DNA of 64,000 nt from Lophium mytilinum (taxonomy: Eukaryota), in the NCBI GenBank assembly GCA_010093605.1, contig MU004181.1, positions 1,302,001 through 1,366,000 on the forward strand. The letters run 5' to 3'. The position numbers were made by a program, and so were the translations under genes. The notes below the pieces were generated by a model. It saw only the letters and a program-made list of their open reading frames with translations, made no database searches and was not told the origin of the DNA. Below are positions 43,888 to 52,007 of the stretch, piece after piece (position 1 is the stretch's first letter; each line of letters opens with the position of its first letter).

Positions 43888-44693
43888 ATACTCCGAACTT
43901 CCATCATCGCCGGTCTAGCCGTCACAACTCTCGCGCGCAAAATCCCCTCTAACGTCCAAGCCTTCTACGATGCACACCTCGTACGTTCATCCTCTGAAAA
44001 AGCCCACTTCCCACAGCCTCACTAACCCATCTCAGAACACAGACTGCTCAAACCCCATCTCCGACAGCTTCTCATCCGTCGTCTACTGCCAGGATGACGC
44101 AAGCGGCGCGCTCTTCCTCAAAGGCCCGTCTGGCTCCTACGATAACATGGACATCGACTGCGATGGCGCCAATGCTTCCGAGGGCCTCTGCGATAACGAC
44201 CCGACGGGCCAATCGATGACGGCGTTCATGGATCAAGTCGCCGAATTCGGCATCAGTGATTTAGACGCCCATATCCATACGTACGTCGTGCTCGGGAATG
44301 AGGGCGCGACGCCTAGCTTTGACCCGCAGAGCGTGGGGATCGAGCCGCTGAGTGTGGTGGCTGTGGTGTGCAATGGCAAGATGGTACGTCCTGCTGGTCT
44401 TCTAGATCTTGAATTTCTGAGCTAACGTGGTTGGCGACTAGTTCTACGGAGTCTGGGGTGACACGAATGGCGGGACTTCGACGGGCGAAGCAGCTTTGTC
44501 CATGGGCCAGCTCTGCTTTGGCGACGACGCAGTGAATGGGAATGAGGGCCATGACGAGGCGAATGTGCTTTATGTTGCTTTTCCTGGTAGCGACGCGGTT
44601 CCGGGAAAGTCTGCGGCGTGGAAAGCGGAGACGGAGGAAGAGTTCGAGGAAAGCCTTGCTGCGATCGGAGACAAGCTCATTGCAAACCTGTAG
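43888..44693 (+). CDS. GH75 fungal chitosanase, 3 exons; the expected start codon reads ATA
   Basis: (I)[34 protein letters not shown]...NMDIDCDG...[13 protein letters not shown]...[24 protein letters not shown]; introns 43981-44035 and 44384-44441. Confidence 0.88.
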
Positions 44694-45175
44694 AGAAAGG
44701 ACAGGGTCGTCTCCACTGTTAGTACCGCCGCCGCTGCTCTGACGAGGACGGCGGCGGAAGGTCAGTCTTCTTCATTTGCGACGGTCGTGGTTACAGCTAT
44801 CTCAGAGAGACTGGGAGCGGTTTGAAACTATAGAACCTACTATAGTCCCAATTTGCGGCCATTGACGCGAGTAACACTAGGGCTGGTTTCTGAAATTGAA
44901 GGAGGGTGAGTGCTGTGAAGTTACATGTTTCAAATCATGTACATCCTAGCGGTGGGGCTTGACTGCCTGAGAGCCTTCACAGGTCGCATTAGGTAACTAA
45001 AAGAGATTAAGCAACCGAAGTTTTAAACTGCATCAATCATATGCTTTGTACAACACTTACGGCTCTGAGATTCTTAAGAAAGCCCAATTAGCATATGATA
45101 TTGTGTGACATCAGAGAGGACATCGAAACACCCTGGAAGACTGCAAGGACCTGCCTTACAACTAGAACGAGCTCC

Positions 45176-48100
45176 TCATATCACCAATAGCTCCTGAACA
45201 TCAAGCCCAGCCTTCCTCAGCCCATCCACATCCATCCCTTTCCCTTCCTCCCCAACCCATTTCCGGATTATCTCCCCATCCATAATCCCCGGTACGTAAG
45301 CTTCCCCCGCAAGCATATACATCGTCTTAACACCCTTCCCTTCGACCTTCATCTCGCCCAACGACCTAAGCAAATGTGGTGTTCGAGATCCCAGCAAAAT
45401 AAACAGCTCATGGCTTGGACTAGCACCCGTTCCCAGGCCCATATAGCCCGTGTCCGTACGGAAGAAGCTGCGTGACAGTACCGCAGACCGAATAGCATTA
45501 TCGGCCGCCACCACCCGCGCATAGTCTTCTGCGGACGGGAAGTCTTTGAGAGCAGGCGGCTGCCGAACCCCGTGGCTCGCCTGTCCTGCTATCCACTTCC
45601 GCCACGCCTGGATGCTGGCCAAGTCCCCTTCTTCCGTAGCGCGACGGAACATGTTTTTGGTGTCTGGGCCTGTTTTCGACGTTTCTTCTTTGGCATCGGC
45701 TTCGGCGGACGTAAACATAGTGTCGGCGCACAGGGCGCGCCAGGTGGCGTCGTACTGTGTTCCCCCTGCGACATAGGGCTGGGTTGACAAGGGGCTGTTG
45801 GCTGGATAGATCGGCAAGGGCAGCTTATCAGTCTTGAGGGCTGACATGTTTGTGACTAGAAAGGGAAAAGTGGCCTCCGCGATCTTGCCCACGCGGATTC
45901 CGAAAAGAGTAAGGACTCGTGTGCGGGTGAGGACTGGCGACTCGGTATACAGTATATCGGGGGCTGGAGCTGGGCAGGAAGCGCATGCATTGAAATTGGA
46001 AATGCGATTGATACGTTCGGTGGTCTGTATTTCGAAGCCTCTTTGATTGATGGTTTCCCAGTTGGGCGTCCAGCTTGGTAAAGTCAGGTGGACAGGATTG
46101 TCGGGGTCGAGGGTTCCACTGGGTAAACTTGTGCCAGGAGGGTAGGCAGCAGCTGTCAAGATCTTTCTCAATTGCTGAGTGACTCCATGATACATGCCTT
46201 CCGTGCGGAAGACAAGAATATCAAGGGTTCCGGAGCCTAATATGGACTGGACAGCAACGTCTTGGAAAAGGACCGAGGATGTAATGGCATAATCCGGTTT
46301 GATTTTGGGGGAGCTGTCTTGGCTTCCCCAGTCTGTTACAAGGCCGAGTAGTCCATACACCTTGTCTCTTGGGTCTGTGGCATCTTTAGTGAAGTAGAGG
46401 CGGAGGAGTGTCAAAAGAGACGTCTTCTCTTTACGACGCCACAAGTTTGCACTCTCAGTGATGATCTTCATTTTCTGAGTGAACAAGCCCATAGAGGATT
46501 TGTCTTTGTCGTTGGTAAGATCGATACTCGCACAACAGGACAGTTTATGCTTTCTCAGGTTGGAATATGCGTCTGCGTAGAGTTGAAGTGGTGCTGTAAA
46601 GTGACCAAAAATCACCGTGACGGTTGGAGGTAGTATTACTTCTTGAACAACCCAAATGCGATTCCACTACAACATTGTTGACGTTAGTCCTAATCGGCAG
46701 GGTATGAAAGGATGCGCCAAGTGCTGGGCTGCTGGAACTGGGCTTGTGCCTGGGCTTTTGAACTGATACTAGACAGAAATGGACCGCACTTACCCATGCT
46801 TGGGACACCAGATCTCGAAATGCTATTAGACACAAAGACCGTAAGTTGATGTTTTGCAAGAGTGGTATATCCGACAAATGAACGTCTCCAGCAAGCAGCC
46901 TCATGAAGCAGAACCCAAGCACCAGAGGATTAGCGGAGCGCGGGTCTGACTTCTCCGGATATGTGTCAGCTAGAGCTGCTGCGAACGAAAGAATCGAGTT
47001 GATTTTTGGAACGTCGCTCGCGTCTCCAGTCCAATTGAAACAGCCACTATCCCAGAGCTCATCGCCAGGAGACGCCTGCGTTTCTCCCAACCAAACCACG
47101 ACTTCAGTGGGGCGCTCGAAGATCTCTCTCATAAGCCCAACCTGGTGCATACGTTCCTCTATGTCAACTTGATTGATACAGATTGCGTCGACCCAGTACC
47201 AGTATGGGGTGTCCGTGTCAAGCGCACGAAGGCTTTGGAGAGCCTTTTTGAGGTTGCGAGTGACATCGAAGCGCTGACCGTTTAGCGTAATAGGAACGGT
47301 GTCGTTGGGGTTTCCCCAAGTGTAAGAGAGGGCTTTGTATTTGGGGTTCTGATCGAGAGAGGCTACAATGAGCTCGCAGCCAACATCGTAGTTGGGATCG
47401 GGGGATGGAGACAGTTTGATCAAGCGGATCTCATTGCGGTCTTTCGCTAAGGATTGGTATACTTTCTCGTGTACAGGACCTTGAATAGCCGTTAGTAAGT
47501 CTATATCGATACCGATCAAGAGTAGGCACGAAGAATGTGTGGGATGACTCGCCTTGCGGTGGATCCTGCGACTGAAGCAGAATCTTTGAAGACCCGCCAG
47601 CGCCATGCAAAGCAGATGAGGTTCTCGTCGCCAGGGCTTGTGCATTGAACTTGACAGTTCCAGAGTTTGGTGCAACGGTACCCGCAGTGCTTTCTTTGAC
47701 CTGGACCCTCTCCATGCCTCTTTTCTTCGCTTCTATGATCTTTTCCAACGTTTTAGGCGGTAACTTCATCATTGAAGCTATCGACTGTGGATTGAATCCC
47801 AGTAATTCGAGAGTTTCCTCGGTTGTAGGAGCGGGTGGCTCCACAACCGGAGTGACAATAGTAGCCTTCACAGGTAGGGTTCTGGCGGTGGTCCCTGCAG
47901 CCATAGTCGGAGGTCTACTCTCAGAGCTATTCTTTCCAGCCCGTACATCTGTCAGAATCGTCTTGGTGGTCTGATCGATTTGTCGGATAGCCTTCGCTAG
48001 GTCTTCCAGAGTCGGCTGGCACTCGATCTTCTCAAGAAGACCTATCACACTACCACAGAGCTCTTTAACGACGTCGTAAGGGACTTGCTTCACAGCACTG

Positions 48101-48225
48101 CCTTCCCCGGTACTTGCGCTCCGATCATGGTCCAAAAGCGAGTTGATTTCCTTCTTCAGTTGGCTTGCGTGAGCTGATAAACTCAAGTTGGCCGAGCTGC
48201 CTATGGCAGGCCATTCGTCCATCAT
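45176..48225 (-). CDS. HET-domain (HET-6-like) heterokaryon-incompatibility protein with an unusual N-terminal extension, 3 exons
   Basis: YKALSYTWG, VTRNLKKAL, WVDAICINQ.DIEERMHQVGLMREIF, W|WNRIWVVQE, ATDPRDKVYGLLGL, LAGEAYVPGIMDGE. Introns 47480-47552 (GC-AG) and 46667-46793. Confidence 0.85.
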
Positions 48226-48696
48226 GACCCGAATTCTGACGCAGGTGGATTGATTATGTTGAGATTGAGACGATTGGAAGAGAAGAAGTTCTTTAGGTGC
48301 TCATGAATTTTTTTTATCTTCTAGCAACGCTTTCAGCTAAGGGGCAGAACATGACGAGGCGGTTGACATGAAACTCAGCTGAAAAGAATACGAGCGGCCA
48401 CACCAATAGGACAGCTGCACGGCGGGTTATTCTGATGGTGGCTTTCTATGCATTACAATTTGGAGGCTCTTGTTTTTCCAATAGTGCTGTGAAGAAAGAT
48501 GACGAGGGCTATCAAAGCTTAACAGATAGGTACATGCATACTGAGAGCGCTAGAGGCACCGACATGCGGCCCGTGTCTAGGTCACGTGCCTTTTCATCCT
48601 GATACTAATAATGTGCCAACTTCATAGACTGAACCGCATCCAAGTCTAACCTATGAAAGTGTATACCACTATTACCAACAGGATAGTTCTCTTACT

Positions 48697-49903
48697 TTAG
48701 GATTGCAGGTACGTGACAATAGCATTGTATGCGGCCTTCGGATTGTAGCTAGAGTCAAATAGGACGGGAGTGCTGCTCGCTTTCCACGAATCCGTATCGC
48801 GGACACCCCAAACAGTTATACCAACGCACTTCGAGACTTGGATACACGCAGTGACAGCCTGAGACATGTTAGTAACTCGTCTGCTGATAGGGGCACATCG
48901 AAGAATCGTCTCTTACGGCAACATAGTCGGTAGAAGACGCCCCAGTAATGTCGAGTTCCGTCATCGCAACTTCTGAGACCCCCGTCGCAACAAGAGCATT
49001 GAGACCACCAACCAAGGTATCTGCGGATGATCCAGAGCCGAGATGCTCTTGGGACCCTACTCCATCGTTATTATGTGCACCACTCGACTTTCGCTCGTGT
49101 TAACGAACCAATTCCGTCAATCGGGACCCCAGCACTGATCCACCTCTTAACAGCAGTCGCAAGCGCTTGCGTCTTCACACTCGAGGCAGATCCAATGCTG
49201 TAATCGTTGATATAGAGCTTCGCAGCAGGGTCGGCAGCTCTGGCAGCGTTGAAAGCGATTGATACGAAGTCTTCTCCGAGGACGTTGTAGAAGACTGAGC
49301 TGCGGAATCCACCGTTGTTGTCGTCGAACATCTCGTTGATCACGTCCCAGGCATAGATCTTGCCCTTATAGCGCGTCATTTCGGTATTCACGTGGTTCTG
49401 GATGACAGTCGTGAGAGTGGCCTTGTCGGAGATGGATGTAACCCATGAGGGTAGTTGGGAGTGCCACACTAGATAAGAATTTAGTTGCAATGTTTGGATC
49501 GGTCTGTACACGTTCCATGCCTACCCAAAGTGTGCCCACGGACGATCTTGCTATTATCCTGAGCCCATTGGACAAGATAGTCAGCTTTTGTCCAGCCGAA
49601 AGAGTTCCTTGAAGCTACGAGGGTCAGCGAATGCCATCAAAATGATCATACATGCGTACGTTCAATTGTATCCCATTTCATGCTGTTCTCCGGAGTGACT
49701 TGGCCAAAATTTGACTGGATGATTGCGGCATTCTTGCCCGTGGTCAATAGTCCTTGATCAGTACAAGTACCGAAGTACTTCTTTCCCTTGGCTTTGATTA
49801 AGGTGTCGATGCTAATTGATGCTTGACGGATGTCTAGTTCTGCGACCGGGGCGGCAGAGACCAGGAACGGTGCTAGCACCAAGGCAAGAGAGAATTGACG
49901 CAT
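48697..49903 (-). CDS. GH10 endo-1,4-beta-xylanase, secreted, no CBM, 5 exons
   Basis: Signal peptide plus ELDIR pro-site, [29 protein letters not shown] (acid/base), AMTELDI (nucleophile), GITVWGVRD. Confidence 0.95.
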
Positions 49904-50137
49904 ATTGAAGTTTAAATACGGAACAGCGCTTTGTAAAAATGTGAGACAATGGTCTCTTTCGAAGAACGAGAGCTCTCATGTTTTTATCTGCGATCGAGTT
50001 GCGAATGCTTTCCACGACCCACGTTCGGTCAGGGCCGTAGCCCGGCCATAGTGCCGAGCGCTTTGAAGGGGAAGGGAATGCGGAGACCCTTCCCGGAAGA
50101 AGGCTTGGCCGCAAGGTTGTTGACGGGGTATAGTTTA

Positions 50138-50247
50138 GGCTGATTTATGTTTCAGCTTCGAAGTCTTGGAGTCGCTCCGTAGAGGGAGGGGTTCAACTTC
50201 AAGAAAATCGATCTATTTGGGAGCTTTGATTAAAGAGGACAGGCTAA
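50138..50247. promoter_or_regulatory. Candidate XlnR sites upstream of the xylanase
   Basis: GGCTGA (50138) and GGCTAA (50242) lie 235-345 nt upstream of the xylanase ATG. The motifs are short and could be chance. Confidence 0.3.
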
Positions 50248-50768
50248 GCTCAGCTTGGCAACAGAATGTGCAGACGATGGAGATGACCTTCATTCGCAGA
50301 CTCGGAAACGACTTCCATATAGACAGGAGGAGATAGAAGTTTCGCGCGTCTTACCTGTTCTCAAAAAATAACAGCCCGCTTGGTAGGCTCGATTTATAGT
50401 GACATCAGTCCGGTTAGAAGATCATGAGCCCACTATCGATTGTCGCGCAAGAATTTGAGGCTGATTCTGTCCTCGCTGAATATTTGGTTATCATCTAGAA
50501 TTGATCAGAAACTCGCAATAAATCTACAACAGTTATGACGCATGATTGATGAGATGCTGCCGGCTGCTCCATGAGACTTTCTGGTCCCTTTATTTTCCTT
50601 TCCAGAAGTCAAAGTACGCCAAATACACTCATCTCCATAGAAGAGCTATCCAAAGAGCCCGCTAAAGATGGTGTGTATGCAGAATTGGTAGTTTTGAGAT
50701 TGCGAACGTGTAGCCTGCCGGTACCGCCCGTCCCTTATAGTACATCGTTAAAGTGAATATCTTTTGCA

Positions 50769-52007
50769 TCACCGCGCATCCAGCAAATGCTTGAATTTTT
50801 CAATCTAGAGAGAGCTATCAGCAAAAGTAGATCTCACAGTATGTCAGTGGCTTACCTTGGTTGATAGGTATTTTTCGACCTCCTCGCTGTTGATACCCAT
50901 CTTTCCATTGGTCTTCCAAGCCAAGGGAACCATTGCCACCCGCTCCTTGACTACCACTTCACGATTTGGCCCTTCAACAGCGAGAATCTTGTCAGGATTA
51001 TTGGTGAGCAGCCGAATTCCTTTCTCACCACCCAGGCCCAGATCCATGAGTATTGCCGTCGCAAGACCGTAGCTCCTGGCATCCGCTGGATGTCGTAGCA
51101 ACAAATTGGCTTCGTATGTGTCGTTTCCCAGATCCTGCAGGTTGTACGCCTTCAGCTTCTCACTAAGTCCAATGCCACGGCCTTCTTGCCGCAGGTATAT
51201 GATGGCGCCACCTGAAGGGGAGACGGAATCGAGGGCCATGAGTCGAGCTGCTTCCTCGAGCTGCTCGCCACAATCACAACGCGCAGACCAGACAGTCTCG
51301 CCGGTATAACATTCGGAGTGGATGCGAATGAGGGGTGGGACATCTGCGGGATTCACGGTTTGCACTCCGCTCTCTGCGGGTACGCGCTTCGGAGCAACAC
51401 CATTAGCGGCGGAAGCTGGTATACTAGGGAAAGAAGGCGAATCAGCTTTTCGCGGCGCCACACCCTCTCCTTGTCGTATCTGGTCAACTCGACTGGTTGT
51501 GCGTCCTGGGTATAGGCGTCCGACATAGGCGCCTCTGGTCATCCGAGCATATTCTGTCTCTCCGGGCCTCTCGGCATCCAGGCTTTTGCTCCTTATGTGA
51601 TTCCCGAAGACAATCGCTAAATGGTCCTTCTTGTCTACGTTGTTACTGTAGACATGCAAGAACATCTCCTGCCCGGCTACGGTCGGTATGCGCGCACGAA
51701 CCTCGCATTCGACGATCGGCAATGTGTTCAGAAGGTTGGGGGGCGGGGCATCGGATGTGAGGGACGTGTCGACGGCTACCGAGCGAGGAATGGGATTCGG
51801 GGTAGAGTTACCGGGAGTCGCTGGCGGCGTGAAGGCTGGTGATATCAGAGAAGGCGGAGGCTCGTGAGCGCTTGCATGGGCATGTTCATGGCCGGTAGGC
51901 CCAGTGTGGGTGAGGTTGAAGTCGAAGGACTGGCGACTCGGAGATTTCGCCTGCGGGGAGTAGATGGGATTGAAGGCGGGTGAGGCATGCGCCGGTAATT
52001 CAGGCAT
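50769..52007 (-). CDS. RIB1: GTP cyclohydrolase II (riboflavin biosynthesis), 2 exons
   Basis: [40 protein letters not shown]; short last exon [11 protein letters not shown]. Confidence 0.95.

Follow-up and report, generated by a model that had tools for sequence, protein, structure and literature searches.

In mammals, L1TD1 derives from the ORF1 of L1 and has retained its RNA-binding part, with no death domain, and the BED domains of plant NLRs represent the zinc finger of a DNA transposon. HET is among the most abundant of fungal domains, and most HET genes are without known function, as stated in passages of PMC10890737. Passages of the same paper and of PMC10197012 describe a remote homology of HET to TIR domains and a presumed activation via oligomerisation by an unknown mechanism, and those of PMC10197012 present HET genes as proposed immune genes whose triggers are mostly unknown. 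Among LINEs, passages of PMC4120745 assign the ORF1s bearing zinc knuckles (type I, with an RRM upstream of the CCHC motifs) to the I, Jockey, R1, and Tad1 clades.

The gene described here lies in a stretch of 64,000 nucleotides of Lophium mytilinum (assembly GCA_010093605.1, contig MU004181.1, positions 1,302,001 to 1,366,000 of the forward strand), referred to below as the window, and all coordinates are positions within it. The gene encodes a HET protein headed by a domesticated transposon part, which is intact and, in one contig of one study, expressed and spliced into the host gene.

Gene Structure and Transcript Support

The gene, its transcript evidence, and its two neighbors were located as follows.

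44997..48498: spliced RNA contig (record 3 of run X1), which does not give strand or transcript ends
47553..48225, minus strand: HET gene exon 1, residues 1-224 and one base of a split codon, from the RNA contig and the frame
47480..47552, minus strand: intron 1, 73 nt, GC-AG, phase 1, with a CTAAC branch site at 47495-47491
46794..47479, minus strand: exon 2, residues 225-453, most of the HET domain
46667..46793, minus strand: intron 2, 127 nt, GT-AG
45176..46666, minus strand: exon 3, residues 454-949 and stop, the end of the HET domain and a long C-terminal region
46640..47339, minus strand: HET domain PF06985, residues 272-462, interrupted by intron 2 (Pfam E 2.1e-25)
43919-44693, plus strand: GH75 chitosanase, flanking the HET gene tail to tail, a synteny marker
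48697-49900, minus strand: GH10 xylanase on the other flank of the HET gene, a synteny marker

A sequence-only reading of the window had proposed that a 73-nt GC-AG intron joins exon 1 in frame to the HET domain, and this junction is present in the transcript data. Both introns (73 nt, and 127 nt at 46793-46667) are skipped in a single 3302-nt contig of X1, where each joint is flanked by 255 letters on its shorter side. The first joint can be placed in six ways, of which only the GC..AG placement is canonical, giving an intron of phase 1 with GCGAGT at its 5' end and CTAACGGCTATTCAAG at its 3' end. X1 also skips ten other GT-AG introns, in neighboring genes, and therefore behaves as RNA; its identity as RNA was a guess that these skipped introns support, and the junction itself is seen in one contig from one study. 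The exon 1 peptide quoted in the earlier reading was recovered at 48225-47553 on the minus strand as 224 aa plus one base. Since the exons are joined by the RNA contig, an artefact of gene prediction was rejected. The spliced coding sequence of 2850 nt gives a 949-aa product identical to P0002, a protein annotated as a HET-domain protein of L. mytilinum, and a word-index search among proteins of 393-2000 residues returned nothing besides this protein itself.

The HET frame is also open upstream through intron 1 (46545-47732, minus strand) with two methionines before it, and an unspliced HET-only isoform from this frame is formally possible. The sole RNA evidence is of the module spliced to HET. 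In the neighboring genes, record 4 of X1 (49660-51952) connects a GTP cyclohydrolase II gene with the GH10 xylanase gene that lies downstream of it, skipping a 215-nt intron between them (50140-50354); this joint transcript is possibly a read-through or a spliced 3' UTR.

The PF06985 match scores 90.2 bits against a cut-off of 22.5 and covers profile positions 1-146 of 146. HET was the sole Pfam family at E 0.1, with no NACHT, NB-ARC, or repeat domains found, and so the protein is not an NLR. A precomputed entry on the whole protein lists PF26639, a family unreported by the Pfam scans of this analysis. The AlphaFold model of the full-length protein has a mean pLDDT of 37.8, and no sequence relative was found in the PDB. 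By its domain content the protein belongs to the HET family and is neither an NLR, a LINE, nor an ORF1p; a part in cell death would be a candidate role.

Homology of the N-Terminal Module to LINE ORF1 Proteins

Exon 1 can be divided into the following parts, two of which overlie its module and linker.

47932..48225, minus strand: LINE ORF1-derived module, residues 1-98, with a W-P start, three helices, and a Q-P kink, from homology and AlphaFold2
47932..48009, minus strand: heptad coiled coil of helix 3, a predicted self-association surface, from the heptads and a three-copy model
47554..47931, minus strand: exon 1 linker, residues 99-224, not ORF1-like by profile search
47692-47823, minus strand: second conserved helical block, residues about 135-178, with no ORF1 match and a model pLDDT of 61-68

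The sequence-only reading had likened exon 1 to the N-terminus of a LINE ORF1 and had suggested a profile comparison. Reciprocal searches found the two to be homologous over residues 1 to about 98, and the likeness did not extend to the remainder of the 224 residues of the exon. When residues 1-100 were searched by phmmer against 1.84 billion representatives, 12 proteins were obtained, 11 of them exon-1-like and the last, P0013 (E 2.2e-5), a gag-like protein of 568 aa with three Cys/His knuckle-type motifs. An ORF1-free profile, built from the query and the 11 exon-1-like sequences, matched P0013 at 98.1% probability over 92 columns. P0013 used as query returned 13 ORF1-like proteins including itself, five of which the ORF1-free profile matched at E<0.01 on database scale, all at the N-terminus; the N-terminus is missing from four of the 13 and half missing from another, and E was 1.7-60 for three Macrophomina proteins.

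In the reverse direction, a profile of 23 ORF1 N-termini matched P0002 with 63.6 bits (E 1.4e-12 scaled to 1.84 billion sequences) and all 20 exon-1-like proteins, three of which are near-copies, at E 1.6e-4 or better. Against this profile the 100-aa peptide scored 68.8 bits and the reversed peptide 1.4, with 4000 shuffles, 3859 of them reported, reaching at most 8.3 bits (plain) and 11.0 bits (heptad-phase). The module was the best match to the ORF1 profile among 931 ORFs of the window, at 66.2 bits, with the next at 4.2. Removal of P0013, which the query itself had selected, left 51.5 bits (E 8e-9), and removal of P0013 together with the next two closest sequences left 44.9 bits; a profile of the eight ORF2-linked ORF1s only gave 49.0 bits (E 5e-8), and controls on these reduced profiles reached at most 13 bits. 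A mere coiled-coil look-alike is ruled out by these shuffles and controls (at most 11 and 13 bits), and because the match also spans W5-P6, H19, P49, and Q70-P71, which lie outside the coil. A scan of prokaryotes yielded a single match of 30 residues (L081), attributed to a chance resemblance between coiled coils, and viral contigs contained no relatives.

Residues common to the fusions and the ORF1s are W5, P6, H19, L30, P49, S59, K66, Q70, and P71, together with the hydrophobic pattern. Identity between the module and the aligned ORF1 N-termini is only 22-33%, and some positions, for example F53, S57, D69, and A79, are nearly fixed in the fusions and different in ORF1 (L020 is omitted from this column table). 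On these profile matches, the N-terminal module is homologous to the N-termini of fungal LINE ORF1s and occupies the same position in the protein.

The homology ends near residue 98. None of the 16 exon-1-like sequences examined has the W-A-x-V-A motif, which comes next in these ORF1s, and no ORF1 match was obtained with a profile of residues 99-225 among 1896 ORF1 and locus ORFs (best E 0.043). When seven LINE proteins were compared with the 64-kb window by tblastn, the module alone was found and neither knuckle nor reverse transcriptase, in agreement with the earlier reading that both are missing nearby; three ORF2 queries gave no match in the window at E 0.1. By these searches, the central domain and knuckles of ORF1 were not captured in the HET gene. 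Pfam gave no match on exon 1, and on 25 aligned modules only scattered weak matches, each in at most two members.

The Donor Elements

A metagenome scan was conducted with patterns from the central and knuckle regions of ORF1, not from the module, and gave 80 loci. From these, the ORF1-free profile picked out 14 of 1875 ORFs, with E values no higher than 4e-4 and the match always at the N-terminus of an ORF1 (L004 and L013 appear to be the same element). An ORF2 or its start lies downstream in nine of the 14 loci (L001, L003, L004, L007, L008, L009, L013, L021, and L022, that of L021 being detected by tblastn), and the remaining five, on contigs of 1.3-3.4 kb, have no ORF2 frame of at least 250 aa. 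Pfam reverse transcriptase, endonuclease, and RNase H domains were found in all five ORF2s scanned. The matching proteins were identified as ORF1s of LINEs because of their CCHC knuckles and the endonuclease-RT-RNase H ORF2 downstream. The label "Tad1-like" for the donor, used in the sequence-only reading, would follow from the element architecture. No blastn match was found between exon 1 with its upstream region and the 80 loci.

The ORF2s of the module-bearing elements are only about 38-43% identical to one another, and the hosts of module-bearing ORF1s include Exophiala and Macrophomina. One donor lineage (L004:5980-8190 and P0047-P0049) has ORF1s of more than 700 aa that carry an additional C2H2-like finger at the C-terminus (Pfam E 0.0014, below cut-off), and L003, L017, and L021 have an interrupted ORF2 next to an open ORF1. 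As a lead only, the ORF1 P0039 was placed at rank 17 (0.90) with an ESM Atlas cluster named "Orf1 for rna binding protein."

Predicted Structure and Self-Association of the Module

AlphaFold2 modeled the module as three helices (residues 12-37, 50-68, and 73-98) with a mean pLDDT of 73. Helix 3 carries a 3-4 repeat with a and d positions at L73, L76, I80, I83, T87, I90, and V94, a repeat conserved in the fusions and largely in the ORF1s too. The core is mostly beta-branched (I80, I83, T87, I90, and V94), and beta-branched residues at both core positions favor trimers in GCN4 variants. LINE-1 ORF1p trimerises via an N-terminal coiled coil.

A three-copy model of the module scored 0.33 (runs 0.33, 0.33, and 0.37), against 0.00 for the best of three controls; it only just cleared the mark of 0.32, with no alignment used and with three copies as the only number tried. 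The runs agreed in at least 81% of contacts, with a partner pLDDT of 56 or more. Most of the best contacts join residues of the same register, at positions 73, 76, 80, 83, 87, 90, and 94, which indicates a parallel coiled coil. In the calibration, which used two copies and no trimers, the mark had been passed among microbial proteins by 21 of 30 solved homodimers and no monomer out of 23, and among eukaryotic ones by 17 of 29 homodimers and no monomer out of 30; coiled coils may pass it through their likeness to solved ones, and among eukaryotic pairs without an older solved relative, only one of seven passed.

No match of significance to the module came from Pfam, the PDB, or the ESM Atlas. 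A fold search returned unrelated helical bundles (best Z 8.8, rmsd 4.4, 88 aligned), uninformative for a three-helix model, and the ESM Atlas gave no usable feature match for residues 1-110, with generic helical structure matches only. The best matches of a profile search of the PDB (E 0.007) were designed helical proteins and an exportin, taken as chance, and weak matches to trimeric coiled coils (E 0.03-0.14) were not used as evidence.

The heptads and the three-copy model together lend narrow support, and not proof, to a parallel coiled coil formed on the conserved repeat. The oligomerisation module envisaged by the earlier reading is thereby weakly favored, as a prediction that narrowly passed. 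The module can be described as a domain of 100 residues that probably serves for assembly in fungal ORF1s of this class.

Relatives Carrying the Fusion

The earlier reading had called for a survey of relatives for the same fusion, and it was found in them. The module followed by a Pfam HET domain is present in P0007/P0017 (Lepidopterella palustris), P0008, P0034, and P0030, and P0011 has the module followed by the start of the HET region; read from the called proteins, the fusion recurs in L. palustris and in three 90%-clusters. The L. palustris protein is 53% identical to P0002 over 937 columns, and Lophium and Lepidopterella belong to different families, both of the Mytilinidiales.

In the eleven remaining representatives the HET domain is missing from the called protein. 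Eight of these (P0004, P0009, P0010, P0012, P0014, P0031, P0032, and P0033) keep a block at the end of the exon and then drift, as does P0015, the cluster mate of the truncated P0003, and P0005 and P0006 end earlier than this block. Drift at this point is as expected from a gene caller running into intron 1, and we infer that the eleven are likewise linked to HET. P0006, which branched nearest to the window module in the first tree, has a length of 124 aa and is divergent from about residue 110 onward; it is possibly a frameshifted or decayed copy.

Compared with P0002, the four HET-bearing relatives are 67-76% identical over HET residues 272-370, 41-49% over the module, 33-45% over the second helical block (residues 140-172), and 17-26% and 12-18% over the two linkers, a contrast which is a rough sign of selection only, since the linkers are of low complexity and the boundaries were set after viewing the alignment. 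The second block is missing from the divergent P0012 and P0014, and a further conserved block occurs at the end of exon 1 (residues 208-225). H19, P49, S59, K66, and Q70 are invariant in 12 of 12 aligned sequences.

These figures bear on whether the module has any role of its own. It might be a passenger, a fragment that gave the gene a start codon, a promoter, or a folded cap and that is held under weak constraint, with no part in assembly or sensing. Such a fragment could well be less conserved than HET, as the module is, and the frame open through intron 1 with its two upstream methionines makes a HET-only product conceivable. It would sit less easily with a module that is about twice as conserved as the linkers adjoining it, has the invariant residues listed above, and has been kept in frame in two families of the Mytilinidiales, and with RNA evidence that splices it to HET. 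We regard this explanation as unlikely.

No trace of repeat-induced point mutation (RIP) was found, the RIP indices of the module being at the background of the window and its RIP indices and GC3 equal to those of the rest of the gene. A recent insertion or a RIP relic is ruled out by these background indices, by the intact frame, and by conservation in relatives. Judged by the same comparisons, the module is an old domestication and not fresh debris.

In trees of the module, which are unrooted, 17 exon-1-like modules make up one side of a branch separating them from the ORF1s, with support of 46/0 when all 40 rows are included and of 93/85 after removal of two long rows (L020 and P0006). This topology is compatible with a single capture of the module, without demonstrating it. 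No HET relative without the module was retrieved, and the gain of the module is for that reason inferred from the diversity of the ORF1s and not from an outgroup.

With an unrooted tree, the direction of transfer could also be reversed, the LINE ORF1s having taken the module from a HET-like gene or both having received it from a third family; ORF1s are known to acquire domains by shuffling (passages of PMC4120745). Against this, the module heads the ORF1s of elements as divergent as the ORF2 identities above indicate and in hosts that include the two genera given, the named HET fusions are limited to one order, and protein searches with the module revealed no third family of carriers. A reversed or common origin is considered very improbable. 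Both this and the passenger explanation fit the conservation of the module and its spread among divergent LINEs less well than does clustering of HET chains by the module.

Proposed Role of the Module

The explanation that we favor, and hold to be somewhat more probable than the opposite, is that a self-assembly module captured from ORF1 pre-assembles or clusters HET chains and has been kept since its capture. The 5' end of a LINE ORF1, about 100 codons, would have been exonised ahead of a non-NLR HET gene in or before the shared ancestor of Lophium and Lepidopterella and retained ever since. The module would correspond to the self-assembly part of ORF1p, a helical hairpin with a short parallel coiled coil, probably a trimer, and the simplest reading is that the host kept this part and discarded the part that binds RNA. 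In the host it may do the same job, with HET chains clustered or pre-assembled on a long flexible tether, and such clustering might set or lower the threshold of the TIR-like HET domain. The long C-terminal region or a partner would presumably hold HET off until a trigger arrives.

The sequence-only reading had also suggested a decoy or integrated sensor. The module could act as an integrated bait that co-assembles with the ORF1p of active LINEs, either the fungus's own or arriving by hyphal fusion, as ORF1p polymerises on element RNA, and the gathering of HET domains would then trigger cell death. That the captured part is the predicted assembly region, with core residues still common to LINE ORF1s, is consistent with such a bait, as are a flexible tether ahead of a domain of the cell-death type and the proposal, in passages of PMC10197012, that HET genes are immune genes with mostly unknown triggers. 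The bait is also compatible with clustering and does not exclude it. However, the aligned ORF1 N-termini are only 22-33% identical to the module, and the nearly fixed positions at which it differs from ORF1 (F53, S57, D69, and A79) look like host-specific specialization. We consider the bait quite unlikely. An immune receptor for retrotransposons, in which the bait joins ORF1p assemblies, HET is switched on, and the compartment expressing the element dies, appears distinctly improbable.

Clustering of HET chains remains the favored role. In this gene family HET is provided with a defined input module that can be removed and whose origin is known. Among fungi, it is a clear example of a LINE ORF1 domesticated by exonisation and preserved in two families. 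If the receptor reading were true, there would be a protein-level defence against transposons besides RIP and RNA silencing, and a trigger could be named for a HET gene outside allorecognition.

Comparison with Known Systems

No report of an ORF1-HET fusion was found in a full-text literature search judged by title and start of abstract, although supplementary tables could list one, and none occurs in the passages considered of PMC10197012, PMC10890737, PMC6416283, and PMC7082219. The main text of PMC7082219, in the parts considered, gives no dates and mentions neither Lophium nor Lepidopterella. The gene represents a genuine case, expressed and conserved, in which the N-terminal module of a LINE ORF1 was domesticated as part of a HET protein.

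The type I LINE ORF1s of fungi, whose elements have an endonuclease-RT-RNase H ORF2 (compare CgT1 and Satine in passages of PMC4641428), share about 98 homologous N-terminal residues with the HET gene, in the same position. The HET gene differs from them in lacking W-A-x-V-A, the central domain, the knuckles, and an ORF2, and here the module belongs to a host exon that is spliced, shows no RIP, and is accompanied by no further remnant of an element in the window. The protein resembles non-NLR HET proteins (Neurospora crassa TOL, PIN-C, and HET-6, and Podospora anserina BH, as described in passages of PMC10197012 and PMC10890737) in combining a complete PF06985 with a long C-terminal region. 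BH and the NLRs HET-D, HET-E, and HET-R have HET at the N-terminus, whereas here it follows an extension of 270 residues headed by the transposon-derived module.

The EKA family of Blumeria graminis is likewise a proposed fungal co-option of part of a LINE ORF1 (passages of PMC4641428). More than a thousand element copies make up this family, with identities to the ORF1 of the element of up to 99%, and they are not fused to a host domain. The Lophium gene, in contrast, is a fusion, spliced and diverged, that has been conserved across families. For EKA genes, the avirulence role has reportedly been disputed since.

The Lophium gene resembles L1TD1 in being a domestication of a retroelement ORF1 and resembles the BED-containing NLRs in placing a transposon-derived domain in a protein of immune type. 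It differs from both in that only the helical, putative assembly part of a fungal ORF1 is present, joined to HET.
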